A DNA stretch of 64,000 nt. Source: a phage. A program made the translations under genes and the position numbers. Under the pieces are notes generated by a model. That model had not been told where the DNA came from and ran no database searches. It worked only from the letters and a program-made list of their open reading frames with translations. The DNA lies in sequence record PX436236.1, one strand, 5' to 3'. The stretch's first letter is position 1. Every line of letters begins with the position of its first letter. Below are positions 15,797-61,208 of the stretch, piece after piece.

Positions 15797-15826
15797 ATAG
15801 TACCACATCCTTGTGGTGTTGTAAAC
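15797..15826 (-). promoter_or_regulatory. Early sigma70-type promoter (GTTTAC-N18-TACTAT)
   Basis: Minus-strand -35-like GTTTAC and -10-like TACTAT about 25 nt upstream of the 96-aa ORF start. Confidence 0.55.
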
Positions 15827-17949
15827 TACATTTTGAATTTATTTGATAAAGAAGAGATATCCAAAGACGCTGCAAGGATTTCCATAGCCTCGTTGCTTTC
15901 AGAAACAGATTCATTAACCAAGAATTGACTGAACCCATCCATCAGGCGAACTTCACCAGTTTCCATCAAATGGTCACCATCGTAAACAGATTCGCTGAGC
16001 TCTGAAGGAGGCGTTACGGTAGCTTCCATAAGGTATTTGTGAGATACTCTATCATTCATGGCAAAAGCCGCTACTTTATCAACCTTCAACAATAATCCAC
16101 GCGGAAGGATAATTTCTGCTTCTTCGGCATATTCTGTAAGGTCACCAGGAGCGATAACTTTAACTGCTTCAGCACCTCGAATAACCATACCAATTTCAGC
16201 AATTCTATCTGCAGGACCTTCAGGTGCAATTGGATTACCAAACTCGTCTTCTTCCCATTCTACCTCTTCGTCATCGACTTCACCCACATCAGATGAACTA
16301 CCACTAGCCAATTTAAACAACTCATCAGCGGAGGACAAAGAACCTTCACCACCAACAAAAACGGCTTGGTTGTCGAGGGCCATATAATTTTTACCGAATT
16401 CACCAAAGATGTTAGGCTTTAATGAGGCTGACACAAAGTTCTTAAAGTAAAATGTTTTGTTATCGATATTATGGCGCAGAATTTTGTATGGCAAATCCTG
16501 ACCACGATACAAAATAGTACCCTTAGGAAGTTTAATACCCTTAGTAAATGCTGAGTCTAAATCCTTAATCAATTTAATAGCCGTTGTATTGTTTTCGGAT
16601 TCAGGTTTACCTAAAAGGAATAAGTTCATAGGAGCATATTCAGCCGCGCAATATTCAATAATAGCATTGCTTTCATCTTTGGTTAGGTCCTTAGGTTTAA
16701 TGAGCTCGCCTGAATAAGCATATGCATCACTAATAGAATCGTTAATCAGTTTATAAACGGCTTCCATAGCGAAAGCAATTCGAGATGCTTTCTCTGAAGG
16801 GGAACCCTTAAAACGGGTACTCAGGTTATTAACAATTTTCTTAATAATATCCAGACTATTGGTTGTATTGATTTGCGAAAGGCCACTTAAAAGTCTATCG
16901 ACTTCTGTATTAAAAAATGCCATATTATTAGAGTAAATTTCAAACCCTTGTTTATCTCTATTAGCATAATTTAGTTTAAATTTACTATCAGTCATTAAAG
17001 CGTGTGTGAGAGCAATAGTGTATCTAAAGTTGGCAAGGTCCTCGCTCTTAGATTTAAACTGAGAAGCCTGACGCATTTTAGTAATGGCACCTTTTTTAAA
17101 GTTCTGACTAATCTGTTCAATACCTTCGTTCTCAGGGCCTTCAGCCGTGTGAACCGGTACAGAAGCTTCAAACTCGTTATAAACCTGCAATTCTTTAGGG
17201 GACAAAGTTTCAGGCTCAGCAGTAGAATACTGCGCCGCCGCTGCCATACGACGCGAAATCTTAGTACGAGTAATGACAGCCTTATCAGTACGTTTCTCTT
17301 CAACTTGTGCAATAGATGCCGCTACGGCTTCGACCTTACTTACAGCCTGGCCGGTTTTCTTAGAAACATACACTTCGCCAACTTTAGACTCAACTTTAGT
17401 ATAAAGATCGGCATTAATTTCAGGCATACCCTTGATATCTTCAATATTAGCACCACGACGTACTAAAAGAACGTAGGTATGTTTTCCGCTGAATTGGAAC
17501 ATGTCGTCAACAACTTTAAACTTACCACCGGTACGAGCCATAGCCAAGCGAGCTAATACGCGCTGAACGGTAGGACCTTTACCTTTCATTTTCTTAGTAG
17601 GGAAACGGAACAAAACCGCGTCCATTTTAAGTTTGTTTATTTGTTCATATATGGTATCGAAAATGGTGTTCAGTGTACCGAGTGGATCGGTACCCAAACC
17701 ACCCTTGAGTTCTGCCGGGGCGCCTTTAGCAGATAAACTCATTAGGATGACATGGACGTACTTATCGCCTGGCTTAACCATTTTAATAGCGTCTCCTTGA
17801 GACGCATAAGATACCATACGAGCAACCAGATTATCATTACCTGGTGCTTGGATAGAGAAAATCTGTGGAATACCGGAACCCGGTTTAAGATTTGTTACTG
17901 GATAGTTTTTAGCGGAATCACTATCAAAAACCTCATTTAAATTTTCCAT
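15826..17949 (-). CDS. alt: Alt-like ADP-ribosyltransferase, paralog 1
   Basis: 707 aa; conserved N-terminal about 235 aa shared with the two upstream paralogs; C-terminal R-S-ExE ART motifs (LYRG, FVSASL, EAEIILPRG); N-terminal LNE gp21-protease-like site. Confidence 0.85.
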   Translation of the reverse strand: MENLNEVFDSDSAKNYPVTNLKPGSGIPQIFSIQAPGNDNLVARMVSYASQGDAIKMVKPGDKYVHVILMSLSAKGAPAELKGGLGTDPLGTLNTIFDTIYEQINKLKMDAVLFRFPTKKMKGKGPTVQRVLARLAMARTGGKFKVVDDMFQFSGKHTYVLLVRRGANIEDIKGMPEINADLYTKVESKVGEVYVSKKTGQAVSKVEAVAASIAQVEEKRTDKAVITRTKISRRMAAAAQYSTAEPETLSPKELQVYNEFEASVPVHTAEGPENEGIEQISQNFKKGAITKMRQASQFKSKSEDLANFRYTIALTHALMTDSKFKLNYANRDKQGFEIYSNNMAFFNTEVDRLLSGLSQINTTNSLDIIKKIVNNLSTRFKGSPSEKASRIAFAMEAVYKLINDSISDAYAYSGELIKPKDLTKDESNAIIEYCAAEYAPMNLFLLGKPESENNTTAIKLIKDLDSAFTKGIKLPKGTILYRGQDLPYKILRHNIDNKTFYFKNFVSASLKPNIFGEFGKNYMALDNQAVFVGGEGSLSSADELFKLASGSSSDVGEVDDEEVEWEEDEFGNPIAPEGPADRIAEIGMVIRGAEAVKVIAPGDLTEYAEEAEIILPRGLLLKVDKVAAFAMNDRVSHKYLMEATVTPPSELSESVYDGDHLMETGEVRLMDGFSQFLVNESVSESNEAMEILAASLDISSLSNKFKM

Positions 17950-17952
17950 TAT

Positions 17953-20034
17953 TTACCCTTGGATGAATTTTTCTGGGATGTCATAGAGGTCTATGCATGA
18001 AGCCAAAAGAGGCAGTACATCAAACCGTGTAGATTTAACAAATGAATCAAAAGATACAGGGCTTTCGGAAGTATCGAAGTCATCTTGATATACGACCAAC
18101 TCGCCGGTTTCCATTAGTACGTCACCATCATATACCACAGATTCTTGAAGCTCATCTGTTGTCATAACTTCAGCTTGGATGAGTTTTGTATTACTAGATG
18201 TTGTTCCATCATTATTAGAAGCATCTGTTATTTTATTAACTTTGACCATTAATCCACGTGGTAGAATAACTTCAGCTTCAGTTGCTATTCCGAGATTTCC
18301 TGGATATACGACATTAACTTTATGAGCTCCATCAATCGCCCATCCTATTTGAACTTTAACATAATCAGGATTTTCTTTATATGCTCTTATTTCATTAGGA
18401 TTAATAGTTATTCCTTCTTCATTTTTATCAACTGTCAATTCGTTGCGAACTTCCGGTTCTAAAAGACCAATACCAGCGTGCGTAACACCAAAACGTCCGA
18501 AAATTATAGGAGTTAAAGAAGTAGATACAAAATTTCTAAAATAAAACACTTTATTTTTAACTAGTGCTTCGTATATAGGAGCAGTCATACTCTGTGCACG
18601 ATAAACTGTAATGCCTTCCGGTATACGGTCACCATTTTCAAAAGCTGAATCTAAATTATTTACAGCGGATTCGATATCTTTTTCGCTCATAACCTCATAG
18701 TTCTGAGGATTATAACGTCCTAAAAGAAGATTATTTATGTCTGTATATCCTGAACCACAATATTCTCTGATACCACGCTTTTGTGATGGAGTATATTTAG
18801 AACCTTCACGAGCAATAGTAATATCAACCATAATACCACCACCCACACCAGCAAAACTATACACGCGTTTTTTAATGAACTTAGTCTTGGCTGCTTTCCA
18901 CTTGGCCTCTGTCAATTCGTTCCAAAGGTCATCAGGTTGGCCTTTACGAGTTCTGTTATGGATAGCCAGCCACTCGCCTTTATATTCTTCGAAAATGGTA
19001 TTAATAGCAGAGGCATATTTTTCTAGAGCTTTAACAGATGTCAAAGGTTCGTTTTTTATTGCTGTAAGAATTTTCTCTTTAATTTTCTCTTGGATTTCGC
19101 CAATACCGTGAAGTGGGAACATTTTATAATCGTAATGCAATTCTTCAGCAGTGCCTTCAGCCACTATATTAGCAACCTTATTTTTAGCCGCAGGAGAATT
19201 GTTATTAGTGACCATTTCCTGGGCCTCAGGGATTAATGGAACTGTTGCCGGTTTATTAAAATCTACTGCAGTAGCTTCATATTTCTTAAACAGCTCACTT
19301 TCATTACGATAAGATTCTAACGATTGACTTGCTGCAATAGCACGTCGAGAAATCTTAGTCTTGGTTATAACCATTTTATCAGTGCGACGTTCTTCAACCT
19401 TAGCAATACTACCGGCGATAGCAGTTTCTTTAGTAACCTGCACGCCTTCTTTTTTAGAAATATAAACTTCACCGACATCAGAATCTACCTTAGTATACAA
19501 TTCAGCATTAATTCCAGGCATACCTTTGATATCTTCTATATCAGCTTGTTTACGAACTACCAGGATGTAAGTATGTTTACCGGTAAATTGGTACATAGCC
19601 GGAACTACTTTAAAACGTCCACCTGTTTTCTGTGCTACCAAACGTTGGATAATCCGTTGAACGATAGGGCCTTGACCTTTCATTTTCTTAGTAGGGAAAC
19701 GGAACATCACGGCATCCATACGAAGCTTTTTAACTTGGTCATAAACCACATCAAAAATAGTATTAATCGCATCTACGGGAGTAGGGCCTAGGCCACCTTT
19801 AAGTTCGGCAGGCGAACCTTTAGCTGAAAGGCTCATAAGGATAACGTGGGCATATTTATCACCCATCTTAACCTGTTTAATAGCATCACCTTCAGAAGCA
19901 TAGGATACCATACGTGCTACTAACTGAGACTCCGCGTCTCCAATCTTCCAAATCTGAGGTACTTTAAGTTTTGGGTTCAAGTTCACAACAGGCAGTGTAC
20001 CTTCGGACTCGAACACTTCATTTAATTGGGTCAT
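17953..20034 (-). CDS. alt: Alt-like ADP-ribosyltransferase, paralog 2
   Basis: 693 aa; same N-terminal module; ART motifs VYRA, FVSTSL, EAEVILPRG; divergent middle and C-terminus. Confidence 0.85.
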   Translation of the reverse strand: MTQLNEVFESEGTLPVVNLNPKLKVPQIWKIGDAESQLVARMVSYASEGDAIKQVKMGDKYAHVILMSLSAKGSPAELKGGLGPTPVDAINTIFDVVYDQVKKLRMDAVMFRFPTKKMKGQGPIVQRIIQRLVAQKTGGRFKVVPAMYQFTGKHTYILVVRKQADIEDIKGMPGINAELYTKVDSDVGEVYISKKEGVQVTKETAIAGSIAKVEERRTDKMVITKTKISRRAIAASQSLESYRNESELFKKYEATAVDFNKPATVPLIPEAQEMVTNNNSPAAKNKVANIVAEGTAEELHYDYKMFPLHGIGEIQEKIKEKILTAIKNEPLTSVKALEKYASAINTIFEEYKGEWLAIHNRTRKGQPDDLWNELTEAKWKAAKTKFIKKRVYSFAGVGGGIMVDITIAREGSKYTPSQKRGIREYCGSGYTDINNLLLGRYNPQNYEVMSEKDIESAVNNLDSAFENGDRIPEGITVYRAQSMTAPIYEALVKNKVFYFRNFVSTSLTPIIFGRFGVTHAGIGLLEPEVRNELTVDKNEEGITINPNEIRAYKENPDYVKVQIGWAIDGAHKVNVVYPGNLGIATEAEVILPRGLMVKVNKITDASNNDGTTSSNTKLIQAEVMTTDELQESVVYDGDVLMETGELVVYQDDFDTSESPVSFDSFVKSTRFDVLPLLASCIDLYDIPEKFIQG

Positions 20035-20042
20035 AATCTATC

Positions 20043-21938
20043 CTATTTAAATAAATTTGCTAATTTTTCCATAGAATCTTCATACATAATTCTATCATAA
20101 TTTCCAAACGAGAATCCGGTGCTATATGAATTTTCCTCTGTGATTTGCTCGGTAGCTACAACTTCACATTCCACTAAAACATATTTACCAATTGAACCCA
20201 TAGGTCCCTTGGAAGCACCGTATACTTTATTAATCTTAAGCATAACCCCACGAGGAAGAATTACTTCGGTTTCTGTAGACCAATTAGCCAAGTCACCGGG
20301 CACAATAACCTTAATTTTATCAGCACCTTTAATAATTAACCCTAGCTTAATGGTATCTCTAGCACTTCCGGTCGCACTTTTAATGGTGTCTTCAAGATTA
20401 CTATCTATATCGCTAGAAAGAGCTTCAGGGTCTAAGTTGGATTGAGCATGACCCATTTCACCGAAAATATTAGGAGCCAATGAAGTTGATGCAAAAATAG
20501 GAAGATACATCACCTTATGTTTTATAGAATTCAAAGCCATTTCGGTAGGCATTATCTGAGAACGATACACTATGGTTCCTTTAGGAAGTTTTGTACCATT
20601 TTCAAATGTAGAATCCAACTCACCAATCATTTTTATCATTTCATCGGTGGTATCTGTTTTACCTAGCAAAAAGTTGTTTATATGGTTGTAGCCGCCACGA
20701 GTATACTTTTTGACTGCCTCTTCTTGAGGTTTGGATAAATTAGGATTATCAGATATCTTAAACAATGGTTGGATAGATTTTGTATAAACTGCTACTAAGG
20801 ATTTTATTACTTCCTTGATTTTAGATTCTCTAGCCCAAGTACCTTTAACTGAATCATCTAAAAGGGCCGCAGCGACTAGTCTAAGAATGTCTACATTAGA
20901 TTTACCTGATTTTAAAGCCTCTATGACACTATTAGATTTATCTAAAGAATCTGATGCCTCTAAAGCAAACTTTATATCAGCAATTAGTTTAAGTTTGCGC
21001 TCGTCTACTTCAAATGATGGATTAACACCGTTAAAAATATAATCCAAATATTCTGCCATTTCTTTAGAGGCGTCTTTTAATATTTTATTACTGGCTAAAG
21101 CTATTTGGCTTTCTTTAGAATCTTCAGAAGAATGAACGGAACTAGTAGCAGAATAATCTGCATAAGCTTTTTTGTGCTCTGCCGAAAATTTACTCAATCC
21201 TGTAGGCTCGGCGGTAGAATATAACGCATTTATAGCGGCCCGTTTAGAAACCTTAGTCTTGGTTATAACCATTTTATCAGAACGTGATTTTTCTATTTCG
21301 TCTATAGACTTAGCTATAGCTTCTAATTTGGTAACATCTTCGCCTGTTTTCTTTGAAACATACACATCACCGACTTCAGATTCGACTTTAGTATACAATT
21401 CCGGATTAATATTAGGAATACCGTTTATTGATTCTATATTTTTATTTTTACGATAGATAAAAACATATGAATGTTTGCCTGTATATTGATACAAGGCATC
21501 AAGGACCTTGAATTGCCCACCTGCTCTAGTAGCTATTAATTTGGCTAGAACTCGTTGTACAGCTTTTTCCTGACCTTTCATTTTCTTAGTAGGAAAACGG
21601 AACATAACGGCATCCATACGGAGCTTTTTAACTTGTTCATAAACCGTATCAAATATAGAACGAATAGCGGAAATGGGGTTACTACCTAAACCACCTTTGA
21701 GTTCTGCCGGGGCCCCTTTAGATGATAGGCTCATTAAAATAATATGAACGTATTTGTCACCCGGTTTAACTTGGCGGATTGTATCACCTTCAGAAGTATA
21801 TGAAACCATGCGTGCAACAAGGTTCTCATTACCTTCAGCCTTTATATTCCAAATCTGCGGTACTTTAAGTTTAGGGTTTAAATTGACAGCTGATAAATCT
21901 ATAGCGCCGTCAAATACCTCATTCAATTGTTCGGACAT
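20043..21938 (-). CDS. alt: Alt-like ADP-ribosyltransferase, paralog 3
   Basis: 631 aa; same N-terminal module; ART motifs VYRS, FASTSL, ETEVILPRG; divergent C-terminus. Confidence 0.85.
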   Translation of the reverse strand: MSEQLNEVFDGAIDLSAVNLNPKLKVPQIWNIKAEGNENLVARMVSYTSEGDTIRQVKPGDKYVHIILMSLSSKGAPAELKGGLGSNPISAIRSIFDTVYEQVKKLRMDAVMFRFPTKKMKGQEKAVQRVLAKLIATRAGGQFKVLDALYQYTGKHSYVFIYRKNKNIESINGIPNINPELYTKVESEVGDVYVSKKTGEDVTKLEAIAKSIDEIEKSRSDKMVITKTKVSKRAAINALYSTAEPTGLSKFSAEHKKAYADYSATSSVHSSEDSKESQIALASNKILKDASKEMAEYLDYIFNGVNPSFEVDERKLKLIADIKFALEASDSLDKSNSVIEALKSGKSNVDILRLVAAALLDDSVKGTWARESKIKEVIKSLVAVYTKSIQPLFKISDNPNLSKPQEEAVKKYTRGGYNHINNFLLGKTDTTDEMIKMIGELDSTFENGTKLPKGTIVYRSQIMPTEMALNSIKHKVMYLPIFASTSLAPNIFGEMGHAQSNLDPEALSSDIDSNLEDTIKSATGSARDTIKLGLIIKGADKIKVIVPGDLANWSTETEVILPRGVMLKINKVYGASKGPMGSIGKYVLVECEVVATEQITEENSYSTGFSFGNYDRIMYEDSMEKLANLFK

Positions 21939-21990: not shown

Positions 21991-22213
21991 AAAGTGGTAG
22001 CAACGTACGGTATACTTCAAATTTAGGACCCTTTTCATAGCGGTCGAAATTATCTTTAAAATCAGCGAATGCGATTTCATTTTCAAATTCAAGGACAATT
22101 TGGGACACTGCGGTGGAGACATCGCCACCTTCTTTATATCCAATAACCACGGTTTCTAAATAAGCTTTCATATTATAGTCCAGTTTGAGACCAATCGCCA
22201 AATACATCTTCAA
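21989..22213 (-). CDS. Hypothetical protein
   Basis: 74 aa ORF downstream of ligase; start uncertain (alternative ATG at 22171). Confidence 0.45.
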   Translation of the reverse strand: MKMYLAIGLKLDYNMKAYLETVVIGYKEGGDVSTAVSQIVLEFENEIAFADFKDNFDRYEKGPKFEVYRTLLPL

Positions 22214-23696
22214 ATGAATCGGCTTCCGTTTTATCGAAACGCCAACCTTTAATAGTTGGAAGGAAAATACTTACAGTATCAGTGCGTCCTTTAGAATGAA
22301 CCCACCCATTACATTCACAGTCGGCAATACGCCCAATCAACTTACCTTCACGGGCTTGTTTCATAAGAAGTTCACGGTCTAAATCAGGACGATCTTCCAA
22401 TGGAATCAATACCTTTTTACCAGATTTATCTTTCTTATGGGTGGTATCTTTAAAACCAGAACCACAGTCAGTTGTAATACGACGACAACGTGATACTAAC
22501 TCTATACCGCCAATCTTATTGGGGTCCTTCGAGTGTTCATAGTAACCTACTACTTCTAAAGCAATATCGATTACTTCTTTGAACTTGATAAGATTCTTAG
22601 AACGGCGGTTCTCCCAGTAGGAGTCCATGTTCTTAAGGATAATACCTTCCAAGCGTTTACCGATATATTTCTTATAAACCGCTTTAGCTTCAGCCAAATT
22701 GTTAACCCATTGGTTTTCAATAGCTTCAACACGCGTTGTACCATGCAATACGACATTATGGGCAACCATAAGTTCTAAGGCTGTAAAGCGTACATCATAC
22801 TTATCGCCTTTAATTTTACCTTCGGAATATACGACATCCAATGGGACATAATCCCATGCCTGTAATACCATACCTGCGGCTTCGGTCGGAGTAATAGTTC
22901 CTTGAAGAGCCTTGTTAGCCAAGCCGTTTGAAGTGGAACGATCGGCGACAGTTTGGAATTCCTTAGCCTTACTTAATTCAGGAAGTTCCTCATCAAACAT
23001 ACTAAACAAATCATTAGATGCTTTAGGTTCTACTTTAGGAGTATGGTAAACTAATTCACCATCAATCATAACACCATTAGGATGACGTTGACGAGCTTCT
23101 TCGGTCATCACCATTAATTCAGCAGCTAAAAGATGAAGCCCTTGGTATTCATTACCACCACGAGTAAGGAACGTCACACCATCATTACGAACTTCAGCAA
23201 AACAACGAGCGCCATCAGCTTTTAATTGAGCAAACGCTGGCCATTTAATATTTTTCTTAATCAAAGCTTCATCATAAGAACTCGCCAACATCTGCGGTTG
23301 TTCAGGGATTAAACCTTTCCAAACCTTGTTAGCAATAGAAATCGATGCACCACATTCAAGGTCGCGCATCATTACACGACGTAATACCTCGGCATCCGGG
23401 GCCTTAGCATCAGCAATGATTTGAGCCAGTTCTTCAATAGCCGCATTACCCGTAATCTTACGTGTGGCTAATGTGAATTCAGCGAAATCAAGAAGGTCTT
23501 CAAGAGTAATCATACCAAAGGATTGAGATGTAAATCCAGGTTCTGGCCACTTTTTAATACCGTAGTTCAGACGACGGGTATAAGCCATACGATAAACACG
23601 TTTCAGAAGCTCATTGTTCTTTTCACGAGCAATAATGGCTTCTTTAGCTTTAGTAGAATCAATAGCAGCAATTTCGTTTAAAATATCTAAAATCAT
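22173..23696 (-). CDS. 30: ATP-dependent DNA ligase gp30
   Basis: 507 aa from internal ATG with RBS GAGGTG; matches remembered T4 ligase throughout (MILKILNEIA.., FAQLKADGARCFAEV, ECNGW). Confidence 0.9.
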   Translation of the reverse strand: MILDILNEIAAIDSTKAKEAIIAREKNNELLKRVYRMAYTRRLNYGIKKWPEPGFTSQSFGMITLEDLLDFAEFTLATRKITGNAAIEELAQIIADAKAPDAEVLRRVMMRDLECGASISIANKVWKGLIPEQPQMLASSYDEALIKKNIKWPAFAQLKADGARCFAEVRNDGVTFLTRGGNEYQGLHLLAAELMVMTEEARQRHPNGVMIDGELVYHTPKVEPKASNDLFSMFDEELPELSKAKEFQTVADRSTSNGLANKALQGTITPTEAAGMVLQAWDYVPLDVVYSEGKIKGDKYDVRFTALELMVAHNVVLHGTTRVEAIENQWVNNLAEAKAVYKKYIGKRLEGIILKNMDSYWENRRSKNLIKFKEVIDIALEVVGYYEHSKDPNKIGGIELVSRCRRITTDCGSGFKDTTHKKDKSGKKVLIPLEDRPDLDRELLMKQAREGKLIGRIADCECNGWVHSKGRTDTVSIFLPTIKGWRFDKTEADSFEDVFGDWSQTGL

Positions 23697-23706
23697 AATC
23701 ACCTCA

Positions 23707-23985
23707 TTAGTCATGGATTCTATTATAAGCCACATCAGCCAAAAGCAAGTCTAATCGCTTATGATAAGAGAACACAAATCTCATTCGCCCATCAGATTTG
23801 AACTTGGACATAAAGTGGACATAAATGAATCCCTGTTCGACGCATTCGCGCCAAACAGGATGGTCTTTAGCCGGATTTACATCAAATGAGTAATCATGAT
23901 TCACATGACGAATAAACTGGTTTACATGACCATAATCCATTGTAGTGGTAGGACCATAGTCTGAAATTGTATGAACTACAAACAT
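23707..23985 (-). CDS. Hypothetical protein (30.1 region)
   Basis: 92 aa from internal ATG with RBS GAGG. Confidence 0.5.
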   Translation of the reverse strand: MFVVHTISDYGPTTTMDYGHVNQFIRHVNHDYSFDVNPAKDHPVWRECVEQGFIYVHFMSKFKSDGRMRFVFSYHKRLDLLLADVAYNRIHD

Positions 23986-24625: not shown

Positions 24626-25080
24626 AATAAATCTCTCAATTTGTTTAGGATGTCGATAAACTCTTTTTCAGTTAGTATTGTATCACATTCTGTAAGGTGG
24701 CTCGCCATCGAATGCTTTAAAACTTTGCCCTTTGTAGCTTGTAATGCGTCGCGGAATCCTTTGTTTTGGAGCGCTGCTTCAAAATATGCATTTGTATACA
24801 ACTCTTTCCATGATGTAGAGTATCTTGAAAAGGGAATTCCAAGCCAGAACAGCGTCCCACGGTCCGCAGCTCTAGCATAAGCTCTTCCAGTTTGTTGTGC
24901 GGCCAGACCGGACATCCCAAATATACGTTTTTGTTGTTCATGATTTCTCACCTTACATCCTTGGAGGAATCCTTCGAGCCCACCAAATTGGATACCATCC
25001 ATAACGAAAGGCCATTTAGCAAAGTTACTTAATGCACACGATGGCCATGGAAAATTGCTTCTTATTTCTAACTCAGACAT
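24622..25080 (-). CDS. NADAR/YbiA-like (DUF1768-like) protein, tentative
   Basis: 152 aa from first ATG (track uses GTG); segment LSNFAKWPFVMDGIQFGGLEGFLQGCK resembles the YbiA/NADAR SNF..WP..VDG..E.FQ..K core. Confidence 0.4.
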   Translation of the reverse strand: MSELEIRSNFPWPSCALSNFAKWPFVMDGIQFGGLEGFLQGCKVRNHEQQKRIFGMSGLAAQQTGRAYARAADRGTLFWLGIPFSRYSTSWKELYTNAYFEAALQNKGFRDALQATKGKVLKHSMASHLTECDTILTEKEFIDILNKLRDLL

Positions 25081-25285
25081 CTTTGACACTTATAATTTCG
25101 ACATCAGCCCAATGACCATAACCAGGTAGACGGTCTTTAATAGATAATCCGCCGTCAGATTTCAGCATTTTAATTGTTTTAGTATATGGTTCATCTTGTG
25201 GATGCACAGGAGATAAATCAGTTACACGATAAGTCACTTCGACCATTTCCGTACCTAATAATTTCTGAATCAATTTCTTAAACAT
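25073..25285 (-). CDS. Hypothetical protein
   Basis: 70 aa ORF with RBS GAGGA. Confidence 0.5.
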   Translation of the reverse strand: MFKKLIQKLLGTEMVEVTYRVTDLSPVHPQDEPYTKTIKMLKSDGGLSIKDRLPGYGHWADVEIISVKDV

Positions 25286-25286
25286 A

Positions 25287-25481
25287 TTATCCTCGCTTTA
25301 AACATTTGATTACAGACAGTTCACCGCCCATGCGAACGTCTTCAGTTCCATCGACCCATAAGACGGTGTAGGCTTCTTTAATAGTAACATTACCTAATTT
25401 AAAAGCAGGTAGAACCTTTGAAATCATTCCAGGAATACCTACGCCTTTTAACTGGACTGTTTGCGATAAAAATAGTTGCAT
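25287..25481 (-). CDS. Hypothetical protein
   Basis: 64 aa ORF; TAATG overlap with the upstream gene. Confidence 0.45.
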   Translation of the reverse strand: MQLFLSQTVQLKGVGIPGMISKVLPAFKLGNVTIKEAYTVLWVDGTEDVRMGGELSVIKCLKRG

Positions 25482-25768
25482 TAGAACCTCATCTGAAAGC
25501 CGTGTGATTTAACATTACCGCCGTAGATGTCAGAGGTGTTGACTTCACGGGCGGCACTAGGGTCGATATTGATATCACGGTTGAGCTTAGTGATTGCTAA
25601 GGTATCACGACCATTAACAGTACGGAATTCTACAGGGCATACAACATCAGCATAGGCCTTAATAGATTCACGAGTAGGTTGTTTGTCGGCAGGAACGTCT
25701 TTACCTGCTTTAGAGAAAACAACTTCACAGAAATTTTTACGAGTATCGAAATAAGTGGTCATAAACAT
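25481..25768 (-). CDS. Hypothetical protein
   Basis: 95 aa from internal ATG preceded by the conserved leader GAGGAAAATATT; the track start at 25801 lies inside a hairpin. Confidence 0.5.
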   Translation of the reverse strand: MFMTTYFDTRKNFCEVVFSKAGKDVPADKQPTRESIKAYADVVCPVEFRTVNGRDTLAITKLNRDINIDPSAAREVNTSDIYGGNVKSHGFQMRF

Positions 25769-25783
25769 AATATTTTCCTCAAA

Positions 25784-25799
25784 GGAGGCCGAAGCCTCC
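25784..25799 (-). terminator. C(UUCG)G hairpin
   Basis: mRNA-sense GGAGGC-UUCG-GCCUCC followed by UUU and then the RBS of the next gene; likely partial terminator or stabiliser. Confidence 0.5.
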
Positions 25800-25809
25800 A
25801 TTTTTAAGA

Positions 25810-26175
25810 TTAGATATCGAATTCGTTCAGAACTACATCAAAGATTGCTTCCAGGTGTTCAGGTTTAGCTCGGTTGCTCAGGATGTGACGAATCCAGGTT
25901 TTAACCAGAAGCTTACGATTAACGCCGTTCCAGCAAGGATGAGTACCTAAATCACGTTGACGGAAATCATCATCTAAAGCTATTTTAAAAGAAGAACCTT
26001 CTTTAGTGATTGAAAGAGTGATACCATTTTCAAAGCGCATATAAACGTAGTTAGGAGACATGCACTGTTCGATTTCGCACACCGCGCCGTTGTTGTGTTT
26101 CCACAGGCAAATAACTTCAGAAGAACCAGCGATACCGTTAGAAACATATTTACGTTCGAAGTTGATGTAGTTCAT
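25810..26175 (-). CDS. Hypothetical protein
   Basis: 121 aa; RBS AAACAAACTGGAGAATAAA identical to that of the next upstream gene. Confidence 0.5.
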   Translation of the reverse strand: MNYINFERKYVSNGIAGSSEVICLWKHNNGAVCEIEQCMSPNYVYMRFENGITLSITKEGSSFKIALDDDFRQRDLGTHPCWNGVNRKLLVKTWIRHILSNRAKPEHLEAIFDVVLNEFDI

Positions 26176-26216
26176 TTTATTCTCCAGTTTGTTTTCGTAT
26201 TATTTGGTACAGGTCT

Positions 26217-26246
26217 ATAATAACACAACCTGTACCAAAGTAAAAC
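26217..26246 (-). promoter_or_regulatory. Early promoter cassette with inverted repeat (PeSL-like)
   Basis: Minus-strand GTTTTAC-N17-TATTAT; the -10 sits inside an 11-bp perfect inverted repeat (26204-26214 / 26228-26238). Confidence 0.55.
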
Positions 26247-26248
26247 AT

Positions 26249-26581
26249 TTATTTCACAACATTCCAATTTTTCATATCAAGTTTACCAACTTTTTTCATC
26301 TGAGCAATCAGACGTTCAGCACGTGTACGGGCATTAACATAATAGAATTCACCATTTTTGTTTTCTTCAATACGACCAGTAATTACAGTTTTCAGTTCAT
26401 AAATCCAACCTGTAAAGAAGTTGTGAAGCTCGATGGTGAATGTAAAATCAGTACCCATACCTTCAGTTGTTTCAACTTCGATGATATCACCTTCAACTGC
26501 AGTCAGGACCCACATGGTTTCTTGATATTCACCGTTGAAACATTTAGCTTTAACAGATGCATTCAGATTTACAGTTTTCAT
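26249..26581 (-). CDS. Hypothetical protein
   Basis: 110 aa; promoter-leader nearly identical to that at 26176-26246. Confidence 0.5.
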   Translation of the reverse strand: MKTVNLNASVKAKCFNGEYQETMWVLTAVEGDIIEVETTEGMGTDFTFTIELHNFFTGWIYELKTVITGRIEENKNGEFYYVNARTRAERLIAQMKKVGKLDMKNWNVVK

Positions 26582-26622
26582 TTTATTCTCCAGTTTGTTT
26601 TAGTATTATTTGGTACATGTCT

Positions 26623-26651
26623 ATAGTATCATGCCTACCGGAGATGTACAC
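26623..26651 (-). promoter_or_regulatory. Early promoter cassette (duplicate of the 26217-26246 cassette)
   Basis: Minus-strand GTGTAC-N17-TACTAT; the flanking about 45 nt is near-identical to 26176-26220. Confidence 0.5.
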
Positions 26652-26679
26652 CCTTTTTTAAAGATTTAGAAACAAAAAT

Positions 26680-26697
26680 GGGACTCCGAAGAGTCCC
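26680..26697 (-). terminator. Intrinsic terminator with UUCG loop
   Basis: mRNA-sense GGGACUC-UUCG-GAGUCCC followed by AUUUUUGUUUC. Confidence 0.7.
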
Positions 26698-26702
26698 ATA
26701 AC

Positions 26703-26864
26703 TTATGCCTGAGGCTTACCAAAGCAAGCAGCATCTGCACGCAATACTGCACGAGCACGAGCTTGAAGCTTATCAACTACCTGATTGATACGCTTGTTGG
26801 ACGCACGCTTGTAACCAGCGCGTTTAGAGGTACCGTCAACTACTTTAACTTCTTTCTTAGCCAT
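26703..26864 (-). CDS. Small basic protein (hypothetical)
   Basis: 53 aa ORF below the track cutoff (MAKKEVKVVDGTSKRAGYKRASNKRINQVVDKLQARARAVLRADAACFGKPQA), pI strongly basic; weak RBS; terminator immediately downstream. Confidence 0.4.
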   Translation of the reverse strand: MAKKEVKVVDGTSKRAGYKRASNKRINQVVDKLQARARAVLRADAACFGKPQA

Positions 26865-27126
26865 TTTAAATCTCTTAAATTAGGATGCAGGACTTATTGG
26901 CGTTGCCTGCGCAAGCCCTCAAGGGGAACATAGGTTTCGGATATTTAACGACAGGATAACCATAAACCTCGTCATCATACCAACCACGACTTAGACAGAT
27001 AACCTTTTTCTGACGCGTGATAGTACAAAATACATTCAAGAGGTACACCGTAAAACTGTTGGGGTCTTAAAACTATAATGATTCGCAAATCATTAATCAA
27101 ACAGTTCGACGGCTCCTCGATTTAAC

Positions 27127-27375
27127 TTACTTCAGGGTAATAATAAAATGACGTACTGCTTTACGAGCTGCTGAAGCCAAAGGCTTAGCAAATTTCAGTT
27201 CATCTTTAGCTTCCAGTTCAGCAGCCAGAGTAGCCTGAGCAGGATTCAGATGTTTGAAATAACGCAGGATTTCCAGTGCTTCGGCTTCAACATCAATAGA
27301 TGCGCCGTAGTTTTCGTGACCGTTGTTCCAAGCGTTGCGTTGCAGTTCAAGAGCGTGATTCAATTGTTTGTTCAT
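27127..27375 (-). CDS. rIII: rIII lysis inhibition accessory protein
   Basis: 82 aa (T4 rIII is 82 aa); position downstream of gene 31. Confidence 0.6.
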   Translation of the reverse strand: MNKQLNHALELQRNAWNNGHENYGASIDVEAEALEILRYFKHLNPAQATLAAELEAKDELKFAKPLASAARKAVRHFIITLK

Positions 27376-27513
27376 TTTAGTTTCTCAATTCGAGATAAAG
27401 ATTGGTGGACACGTTCTTCTGAATTTCACTTCCTTTCGGCAAGTCTCTCAGTTGTAGTCCACCGCTTAGGATTCTCCGGTTAACTAACTAGTCCGGCAGC
27501 CAATCCATATTAT

Positions 27514-27521
27514 TATTTATA
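27514..27521 (-). promoter_or_regulatory. Candidate late promoter TATAAATA upstream of rIII
   Basis: Minus-strand TATAAATA immediately after the gp31 stop, about 140 nt upstream of the rIII ATG; could be a chance match in AT-rich DNA. Confidence 0.35.
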
Positions 27522-27845
27522 TCACTTATAAAGGCAAGGAATAGCTTTATAGTGACAGGTAACGAATTTTTGTTTAATTTCTTTAGGTTGTTTAATACCC
27601 AATGCAACCAAAGGATGAGGCACGTTAGCAATCTTACCAACAGGAAGTGGAGTCAAATCACCTACTTCACAAAAATCTTCAGGGACATCAGGTCCTACAG
27701 AATAAATTTCACAAAGTTCAGGGATTTCACCTTGATGAAGTTTGCCAATAACGATACCAGATGCAGTAGTTTCTTCATCACCAGCTTGTTTTGGTTCGGA
27801 AACGAGAATAACATATTCTCCGACCGCTTTAATAGGAAGTTCCAT
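27522..27845 (-). CDS. 31: Co-chaperonin gp31 (GroES-like)
   Basis: 107 aa; near-identical to remembered T4 gp31 ([41 protein letters not shown]). Confidence 0.9.
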
Positions 27846-27903
27846 ATTTAATCCATATTGTTTTGTTGATAGATTAATAATAACACGCTATTCTTAAAGC
27901 ATA

Positions 27904-28203
27904 TTACAGGACAAGCAGAGTTTCAGTCTGAAGGCCGTTAATAGAAATCAGCTTATCGAAACGGAATGAGCGCCAATCATTAACCTTGGTATCAAATACT
28001 CTGATATAATTAACAGGTTCTTTATTGGCTTCTGGCCCAGGGGCCTGGACTTCTTTATACGGCAGCAGGTCTAAGTCGCGAGTACAAGTCATACGACGGG
28101 CACTACCATCAGCTTTTTCAAACAGGACTTCGTGAAAACCAACAGACAAAATAGTCTTGACTTTTTCACGGAGACGAATAGTTTCTTGTTCGGTTAAAAT
28201 CAT
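27904..28203 (-). CDS. Hypothetical protein (31.1 region)
   Basis: 99 aa ORF, T4 31.x position. Confidence 0.5.
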   Translation of the reverse strand: MILTEQETIRLREKVKTILSVGFHEVLFEKADGSARRMTCTRDLDLLPYKEVQAPGPEANKEPVNYIRVFDTKVNDWRSFRFDKLISINGLQTETLLVL

Positions 28204-40349: not shown

Positions 40350-40595
40350 TTATTTTTGAATTAAGCCCATATAAAATTTAGCGTCTTCCGGGTGCATACC
40401 GTCACAATACTCGTCAGCCATAAAGCGGGTAAGGTCTTCAAGAGGACCTTGGACTTCAATTTGCATACTACAGAATTGGGTATCTTTAATATGGGTCATA
40501 ACTAAAGAAGGATAACGATTACGGATAACTTCGTAAGTGTATTCAAAATCAACGATATCAATATTAACCTTAGCCATTTTATTTTCCTCACTCAT
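40350..40595 (-). CDS. Hypothetical protein
   Basis: 81 aa; conserved leader and RBS GAGGAAAAT. Confidence 0.5.
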
Positions 40596-40609
40596 TAGTT
40601 GATAGGTCT

Positions 40610-40638
40610 ATAGTATCATGTTTAAAGGCATTGTAAAC
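40610..40638 (-). promoter_or_regulatory. Early promoter cassette
   Basis: Minus-strand GTTTAC-N17-TACTAT within the conserved motif GTTGATAGGTCTATAGTATCA. Confidence 0.55.
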
Positions 40639-40902: not shown

Positions 40903-41292
40903 TTAGGCCTTAAAAGTTTTTTGCAAAAGTTCAATGATTTGGTCAACGTTCTGTTCGGTGACAATGCAATGGATTTGAGTCACACCGGCCTTAGCAATAG
41001 GCTCATCGATTTCTTTATCTTCCACAACATATTCACGGAAGCAATAGAACTCGTCTTCATGCAACTCAAAATAATTTGGCGCCAACCCAACTTCATTATA
41101 AATCTCGCCGTTAGCGCATTCGATTTCAGTCACAAATTTGTCGCCATCCATAGTCACCATATCCTTTACTTCAAACCAACCGCCGTTGTCTTGGATAAGG
41201 CCGACCATGCTTTTATTATTTTCATATTCGTCCATTTCAATAAAGTCTTTAATGCATTCAGGACGAAGTTCATAAGTTTTACCGATTTCCAT
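40903..41292 (-). CDS. Hypothetical protein
   Basis: 129 aa acidic protein; conserved early leader. Confidence 0.5.
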   Translation of the reverse strand: MEIGKTYELRPECIKDFIEMDEYENNKSMVGLIQDNGGWFEVKDMVTMDGDKFVTEIECANGEIYNEVGLAPNYFELHEDEFYCFREYVVEDKEIDEPIAKAGVTQIHCIVTEQNVDQIIELLQKTFKA

Positions 41293-41320
41293 TTTATTTC
41301 CTCATGTAGTTGATAGGTCT

Positions 41321-41349
41321 ATAGTATCACGTTTAAAGGCGTTGTAAAC
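41321..41349 (-). promoter_or_regulatory. Early promoter cassette
   Basis: Minus-strand GTTTAC-N17-TACTAT. Confidence 0.55.
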
Positions 41350-61091: not shown

Positions 61092-61208
61092 TCAGAAGTT
61101 AAAGAATACACGTACATGGTCAATCATAAAAACGATTGGGAAAATGCTCAATACCATTAACAACACAAACATGTTCCAAATTGCTTTAAGTAAGTTTTTC
61201 ATAATCAT
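61092..61208 (-). CDS. Small hydrophobic peptide
   Basis: 38 aa ORF (MIMKNLLKAIWNMFVLLMVLSIFPIVFMIDHVRVFFNF) with RBS GGAG; below the track cutoff. Confidence 0.35.
   Translation of the reverse strand: MIMKNLLKAIWNMFVLLMVLSIFPIVFMIDHVRVFFNF

Follow-up and report, generated by a model that had tools for sequence, protein, structure and literature searches.

The stretch of DNA analysed here (the window: 64,000 nucleotides of a phage genome, sequence record PX436236.1) can be placed by its sequence in the genus Dhakavirus, among the T4-type myoviruses. The 3 kb around the repeat discussed below have 99.2% identity with phage IME540 and 97-99% with E33, WG01, QL01 and Bp7. Gene order follows from the annotation of IME08, T4 and Bp7, with all genes on the minus strand: gene 31 (27522-27845), rIII (27127-27375), 30.9 (26703-26864; 53 aa), 30.8 (26249-26581; 110 aa), 30.7 (25810-26175; 121 aa) and 30.6 (25481-25801). 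The products of 30.8 (PF06019, E=6e-48) and 30.7 (PF06919, E=1e-50) share 78% and ~90% identity with T4 gp30.8 and gp30.7, respectively, and each gene occurs in about 1000 phage records. Both ORFs have the positions and sizes given in the original prediction, which also held that the two proteins are unlike each other; BLASTP between them finds no similarity (E=26), in keeping with their separate Pfam families. Gene 30.8, present here as what we call the w allele, forms a module between two regulatory cassettes, referred to as cassette B (upstream of 30.8) and cassette A (upstream of 30.7).

What exactly is repeated in front of these two genes? A repeat finder pairs 26577-26631 with 26171-26225 (its family D10, the second being the reference copy) at 51 identical positions out of 55 (93%); the copies, both on the minus strand, are 406 bp apart and each runs from the -10 box to ATGAA. 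The near-identical part thus begins with the -10 hexamer and ends at ATGAA, 47 nt plus the start codon in all, and includes a 39-mer leader, TGTACCAAATAATACNAAAACAAACTGGAGAATAAAATG, found exactly twice in the window (minus strand, 26173-26211 and 26579-26617) and never in 100 dinucleotide-preserving shuffles (expected 0). Read on the coding strand, each copy consists of promoter, AGAC(A/C)TGTACCAAATAATAC(T/G)AAAACAAACT and then GGAGAATAAA-ATG. The near-identity of some 50 bp ahead of both ORFs is therefore as predicted, but the prediction had an entire promoter duplicated, and this is not the case: the -35 hexamers are unlike (GTGTAC vs TTTTAC), the 17-nt spacers match at only 4 of 17 positions, and the shared part begins at the -10.

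Judged from sequence, both cassettes would carry a promoter of the T4 early type, with -35 and -10 set 17 nt apart. Cassette B (26582-26651) comprises a -35 GTGTAC (26651-26646), a 17-nt spacer (26645-26629), a -10 TACTAT (26628-26623) and a leader (26622-26582); it belongs to the GTTTAC-N17-TAYTAT family, and the same promoter stands here in other genera. Cassette A (26176-26245), parsed with the T4-early pattern, comprises a -35 TTTTAC (26245-26240), a spacer (26239-26223), a -10 TATTAT (26222-26217) and a leader (26216-26176). A generic sigma-70 scan caught cassette A only, in a register shifted by 1 nt, and returned 11 sites where 10.8 were expected; since such a scan is uninformative here, a T4-specific pattern is needed, and GTTTAC-N17-TAYTAT occurs three times in the window against an expectation of 0.05. 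In the TuIa record AJ621579 a -35, a -10 and a ribosome-binding site are annotated upstream of 30.7; that cassette has B-type upstream sequence, and TuIa lacks 30.8. The -35 of cassette B is preceded by TTTTTGTTTCTAAATCTTTAAAAAA, and ~5 nt separate the 30.8 stop codon from the -35 of cassette A. At the other end of each cassette the Shine-Dalgarno (SD) spacing is GGAG, 6 nt, ATG, and the element GGAGAATAAAA supplies the SD of 30.8 (26581-26591) and of 30.7 (26175-26185). Both copies match exactly GGAGRAYARAA, the strong RegB/S1 cleavage-site consensus (GG*AGRAYARAA) given in the review of Uzan and Miller (2010; PMC3014915), whose T4 early promoters the cassettes also resemble in their GTTTAC-N17-TAYTAT layout. 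This motif has four matches in the window against 0.27 expected, two of them being those in cassettes A and B. We therefore read GGAGAATAAAA-TG as a probable ribosome-binding site that is also a candidate strong RegB site, at which the transcripts would be cleaved.

Cassettes A and B are not alone: at least ten such cassettes are found in the 64 kb, all on the minus strand and all ahead of small ORFs. From the -10 to the ATG, A and B are the most similar pair (94%), the next reaching 87% and the median being 62%. The second-best pair (40577-40638 and 41292-41349, minus strand; ~711 bp apart) precedes frd.3 (PF05798) and frd.2 (PF03197), in an arrangement like that at 30.8/30.7.

The two cassettes differ in the stem-loops they are predicted to form. 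Between 30.9 and cassette B lies an intrinsic terminator, a hairpin ATGGGACTC-TTCG-GAGTCCCAT with a T-run behind it (26678-26699, minus strand; -18 kcal/mol, z=-4.0), which is annotated as a terminator in relatives. In cassette A, folding predicts a stem-loop of 12 bp or more, TTTGGTACAGGT...ACCTGTACCAAA, at 26203-26239 (minus strand), enclosing the -10; it reaches -18.8 kcal/mol (z=-3.5) in a 76-nt construct from -35 to ATG (26245 to 26170) and -20.2 kcal/mol (z=-4.3) in an 80-nt fold. A stem of comparable strength is found at the A position in every genus tested except Karamvirus (EcL8g), and stems of at least 10 bp are built from unrelated sequences in X20/Gravdalen, VAC36, PEi20, 92A1 and Roth17; the A-type stem sequences across genera are TTTGGTACAGGT, GGTGAGAGTCTG, TTGGTGTAGGAGTA, GCTGATTGAGTGTG, GTGAGATAACA and TTGGGTGGT. 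As for the Karamvirus, Enterobacter phage EcL8g, an 11-bp stem in its 30.7 cassette (CCTCCGTTGTA/TACAACGGAGA) masks the SD (probability of being unpaired 0.00), so that an SD-masking design replaces the hairpin around the -10.

In cassette B the predicted element is a long-range stem (26587-26644, minus strand), in which TCTCCGGT (26644-26637) pairs with ACTGGAGA (26594-26587). By computation, the SD is unpaired with a probability of 0.11 in a read-through RNA vs 0.73 in an RNA from the cassette's own promoter, whose start was assumed to lie ~7 nt after the -10; controls with a shuffled 5' part average 0.65, and 7% of them are as low as the real sequence. The same contrast, made with different pairing sequences, appears in T4, HX01, X20, Gravdalen, VAC36 and PEi20, and it is absent from Roth17, C6 and 92A1. 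Within the window, seven of the ten cassettes behave like B, with an SD mostly paired (probability unpaired at most 0.35) when folded from the -35 and open when folded from their own promoter (ATG at 61202, 60436, 58066, 44557, 41292, 33351 and 26581). Three cassettes have the spacer motif ACATCTCC in common, and the SD side compensates in each pairing: CTCCATTA/TAATGGAG, CTCCTCAT/ATGAGGAG and TCTCCGGT/ACTGGAGA.

Is the repeat the trace of a recent duplication, or were both cassettes there before? Nine T4-like lineages were compared (Tequatrovirus, Mosigvirus, Dhakavirus, the VR20 type, Klebsiella phage Roth17, Winklervirus, Marfavirus, Kanagawavirus and Serratia phage 92A1). All nine keep the order 30.9-30.8-30.7, and in all nine 30.8 and 30.7 each have their own GTTTAC-type promoter and GGAG-type SD block at the same positions. 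On these alignments each cassette is an old one, with orthologues in the other T4-like genera. Since both promoters sit at the same positions in the nine lineages, the repeat appears to reflect a lineage-specific homogenisation of two pre-existing cassettes, with no fresh duplication. The homogenised part is the leader core of ~24 nt, which varies freely among genera. Within Dhakavirus genomes the A and B cores are 85-100% identical (92-100% in nine of the ten compared; the 85% is that of VR5, whose A leader is a variant), and the repeat is kept in every Dhakavirus examined; the corresponding figure is 75-79% in Mosigvirus, and T4 and the VR20 type have low values. Over the -10 and the leader together, A and B within Dhakavirus genomes are 92% identical, vs at most 86.5% between orthologues. 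Marfavirus has the same excess (88.5% vs at most 80%) with a sequence unlike that of Dhakavirus. In a position-by-position reading of the alignment the Dhakavirus leader is about equally far from the A and the B leader of HX01.

Could shared function alone account for this likeness, the -10 and the SD/RegB block being required of both copies without any copying or recombination between them? The end blocks invite the thought, as TAYTATAGACNTGTACC and GGAGAATAAAATG are common to both cassettes in several genera and partly to other cassettes of the window, and GGAGAATAAAA fits a functional consensus (PMC3014915). The leader core does not follow: because it differs between genera yet is near-identical between the copies inside Dhakavirus genomes, constraint does not explain the A-B identity, and the separate excess in Marfavirus, with different sequence, points the same way. 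Moreover, no structure is predicted for the leader (0 kcal/mol), and Rfam covariance models find no match at E<=1 in 25000-28000. Convergence as the complete explanation is thus largely refuted, and we regard it as improbable. Homogenisation of the leader is the better account, and the process behind it would most likely be gene conversion or unequal homologous recombination between the copies. Two further observations concern leaders. In PSD9 (locus sequence L024, 1230-1275) and VR5 leader A diverges after ...AAAACAAAC, its 3' end is 9 nt longer and the SD is AAGGA; in PSD9 the N-terminal third of 30.7 has diverged too, with a recombination junction inside leader A. In Aeromonas phage B614 (L008, 1100-1500) a 30.8 homologue follows the DNA primase gene and 30.7 is missing; the GTTTACA promoter cassette of this homologue and the preceding cassette share the leader segment CAAGTTAAACGAAA, so neighbouring cassettes with common leader sequence recur far from coliphages.

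The gene between the cassettes is itself exchanged. Aligned with IME08, the window shows ~100% identity over 30.9, the terminator and the whole of cassette B, drops to 35-68% across the 30.8 ORF only, and is back at 100% from the spacer of cassette A. A base-level three-way alignment of window, IME08 and HX01 places the left crossover zone in cassette B, at GGAGAATAAAATGAAAA (26575-26591, minus strand), and the right one in cassette A, at TTTACTTTGGTACAGGTT (26227-26244, minus strand). The IME08 allele encodes 122 aa, 39% identical to the window's protein and likewise PF06019, and is of the type of Mosigvirus HX01. The w allele of the window is present in 33 of 45 close relatives, and the other 12 have the 39%-identical one (i). 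Carriers of i are scattered by flank similarity, yet their alleles are 98-99% alike, an incongruence from which it follows that the exchange happened or spread repeatedly. Ordinary homologous recombination in conserved intergenic DNA suffices for such an allele replacement, which taken alone is no proof of a special role of the cassettes.

In other genomes 30.8 is missing from this place. In Mosigvirus G2285 the order is 30.9, terminator, cassette B and then 30.7 directly, with 30.8 missing at the locus; its sequence equals HX01 cassette B up to ...AAAACAA and HX01 cassette A/30.7 from CTGGAG on. Such a contiguous junction without 30.8 at the locus, where relatives carry ~443 bp more, occurs in at least eight Mosigvirus genomes and in the TuIa fragment (the Mosigvirus deletions were reached through a truncated 30.7 match, H80). 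The crossover lies just before CTGGAG in G2285, in TATAGACTTGTACCA in SQ17, where the B promoter is fused to the A leader, and within GGAGAATAAAATGAA in AV109 and the TuIa fragment. With three or more different crossover points, no fewer than three separate events must have taken place within the A/B homology, and the junction sequences identify the deletions of 30.8 as recombination between two cassette copies (B x A). In G2285 (L037, 1801-2250) a second deletion has shortened 30.7 to 74 aa and taken out the 30.6 region; the next gene is a homologue of the window's 70-aa ORF (25073-25285).

Does the same happen in the window's own genus? A synthetic deletion-junction query against the phage collection returned no Dhakavirus without 30.8, all 45 close relatives keep both genes, and no Dhakavirus record has 30.8 missing or duplicated. 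In IMG/VR neither the deletion junction predicted for the window phage nor its circle/duplication junction has a match; the leader's only matches there are six genome contigs of Dhakavirus type, which have the native arrangement, and metagenomes gave no match to it or to the junctions. Because of this lack of Dhakavirus losses or duplications of 30.8 and of own junctions in IMG/VR, recombination between paralogous cassettes is documented, at the level of sequence, only in the sister genus Mosigvirus.

Genes are also gained at the edges of cassettes or terminators. In C6 (L023, 741-1097) a 118-aa gene with a terminator hairpin of its own has been added between the 30.9 terminator and cassette B; one extra gene stands between 30.8 and the 30.7 promoter in Roth17, and two in each of X20, Gravdalen, VAC36 and PEi20. 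The C6 ORF is proline-rich, has a weak match to phrog_17531, no Pfam match and a TTCG-loop terminator, and is inserted precisely between the T-run of the 30.9 terminator and the AT-rich start of cassette B. Gene content at the site thus varies among relatives, against the uniform content that would have refuted the prediction. The prediction that a gene was inserted or swapped by recombination between cassette copies stands as far as swap or removal at the cassettes is concerned (IME08, G2285, SQ17, AV109, TuIa), and is not supported for a recent insertion or duplication.

Under that last reading, 30.8 (or 30.7) arrived as a cassette-plus-ORF module and duplicated a resident promoter-leader. 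Integration of a circle at a cassette would, in a published model (PMC2839356), leave two flanking copies; deletion followed by re-acquisition could also yield identical leaders, and SQ17, with its B promoter on an A leader, is the intermediate that such a course needs. The arrangement 30.9-30.8-30.7 with separate promoters is, however, that of all nine lineages compared, both genes are present in all 45 close relatives, and A and B are unlike each other in their -35/spacer halves, where each has a hairpin design of its own, conserved among orthologues. A recent insertion consequently seems unlikely to us. Exchange mediated by a homing endonuclease was also considered; the ORFs between 25.4 and 27.4 kb are the genes annotated as 30.6-30.9 and rIII in relatives, and the Pfam scan covered 30.7 and 30.8. 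Chance resemblance of intergenic sequence, for which nothing speaks except that the region is AT-rich, can be dismissed given the empty shuffles and the persistence of the repeat throughout the Dhakavirus genomes.

What remains, and what we take to be the probable explanation, is that the two repeats belong, as neighbours, to a dispersed family of T4-type cassettes with early promoters, that they act as recombination joints and that their leaders have been homogenised. In each cassette an early promoter (-35/-10) would be combined with a stem-loop that has its 5' arm upstream of the point where the cassette's own transcript begins; a short A-rich leader without structure follows, and GGAGAATAAAA-TG closes the cassette. 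In Dhakavirus the leader core would have been homogenised between two constrained end blocks. As these blocks are conserved within the genome and between phages, the T4 recombination system would find in them short patches of homology. When phages co-infect, crossing over between their orthologous cassettes would then swap the 30.8 allele, and exchange between paralogous copies would delete 30.8 and, in the published model, release a 406-bp circle.

Such cassettes have been described as PeSLs (promoter-early stem-loops), composites of early promoter, stem-loop and SD/start codon; according to the two papers concerned (Arbiol 2010, PMC2839356; Comeau 2014, PMC4122927), variable genes lie between PeSLs and are lost, gained or replaced by recombination at them, mini-circles were demonstrated in RB49/phi1, and T4 recombination needs less than 50 bp of homology. 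PeSL stem-loops lie between -35 and -10 or overlap the -10 (PMC2839356). The likeness is close: cassettes A and B have at sequence level the early promoter, the stem-loop (upstream of the promoter or over the -10), the SD and the start codon, belong to a family repeated upstream of small genes of unknown function, and fit the T-even promoter consensus given for PST/T4 (TTTACW...TAYWAT), and the indel and replacement junctions between close relatives sit in or beside them. The AT-rich tract of PeSLs is weak before cassette A. There are differences, in that the genes flanked here are conserved T4 genes and not ORFans, the near-identity of A and B is limited to the stretch from -10 to ATG, and the stems are not of the GGGG/CCCC type of RB49. 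A term search of PMC2839356 gave neither '30.7' nor '30.8', the part of PMC4122927 consulted makes no mention of 30.9-30.8-30.7 or of Dhakavirus or Mosigvirus cases, and the literature search returned no paper describing the 30.9-30.8-30.7 locus. The lambdoid exchange of Botstein and Campbell (as treated in PMC2839356) is similar in that short conserved intergenic sequences flank interchangeable genes, and different in that the linkers here are regulatory cassettes in a lytic T4-type genome. By its sequence, then, the 30.8 locus matches the published PeSL model, the mechanism is already known and no new kind of system is revealed; only the logic of two hairpin designs and the concerted evolution of the leaders go somewhat beyond the published description.

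What could the hairpins be for? At the T4 genes e, soc, 49 and I-TevI, inhibitory RNA structures keep read-through transcripts silent (PMC3014915). Cassette B is predicted to resemble these in having the 5' arm upstream of its own promoter start, so that the SD would be sequestered only in longer RNAs. The T4 examples are late or middle promoters inside early read-through transcripts, whereas cassette B would be an early promoter behind another early unit and its terminator, known from prediction and covariation. Because the spacer supplies the 5' arm, which a transcript started by the cassette itself would not include, only RNA initiated upstream would fold, and the conserved, covarying hairpins may accordingly silence read-through transcripts. 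Tentatively, and with somewhat less than even confidence, one may go further and propose that the cassette stem-loops, beyond any role as terminators, discriminate between transcripts by origin while the fixed end blocks double as recombination patches driving gene conversion of the leader. In this proposal the B-type design would mask the SD/RegB site, and the A-type design would fold around the -10 and leave the SD free; both designs are conserved among orthologues, with full covariation across genera. The two end blocks of the cassette would be kept fixed by the demands of the hairpins and of the RegB/S1 motif, and these blocks would lead to repeated leader gene conversion between neighbouring cassettes, independently in Dhakavirus and Marfavirus.

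One locus thus combines an allele replacement, at least three independent deletions mapped inside a regulatory repeat of ~50 nt, and insertions at cassette edges, an unusually clean natural record of accessory-gene shuffling by T4-type phages. It extends the PeSL model to Dhakavirus and Mosigvirus coliphages and to conserved (non-ORFan) genes, and the promoter, RegB-site and hairpin elements, if functional, suggest a reason why the repeat persists. Coliphages of both genera are in wide use in phage therapy collections.

Several minor observations concern the surroundings. Gene 30.6 of the window (25481-25801; 106 aa) is swapped for a 204-aa gene in HX01 (L004, 2339-2953) and TuIa (L025, 550-1164), where it is annotated '30.6A'; the replacement has a nucleotide identity of only 15-50%, lies directly downstream of the conserved 30.7 and is another modular replacement in the 30.9-30.6 region. 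WG01 (L002, 574-1008) has two consecutive 213-bp ORFs vs one in the window (25073-25285), which may be a tandem duplication of a 30.4-like gene and is probably the source of the ~225 extra bases of WG01 in the 3-kb comparison; QL01 has ~300 extra bases in the same comparison. Finally, three tandem paralogues of ~2 kb at 15826-21938 (minus strand; 707, 693 and 631 aa), each with an ADP-ribosyltransferase domain (PF03496), adjoin the DNA ligase gene gp30 (22173-23735); they look like a triplicated alt-type gene and explain the repeat families D1, D6, D8 and D12, with 69-74% nucleotide identity.
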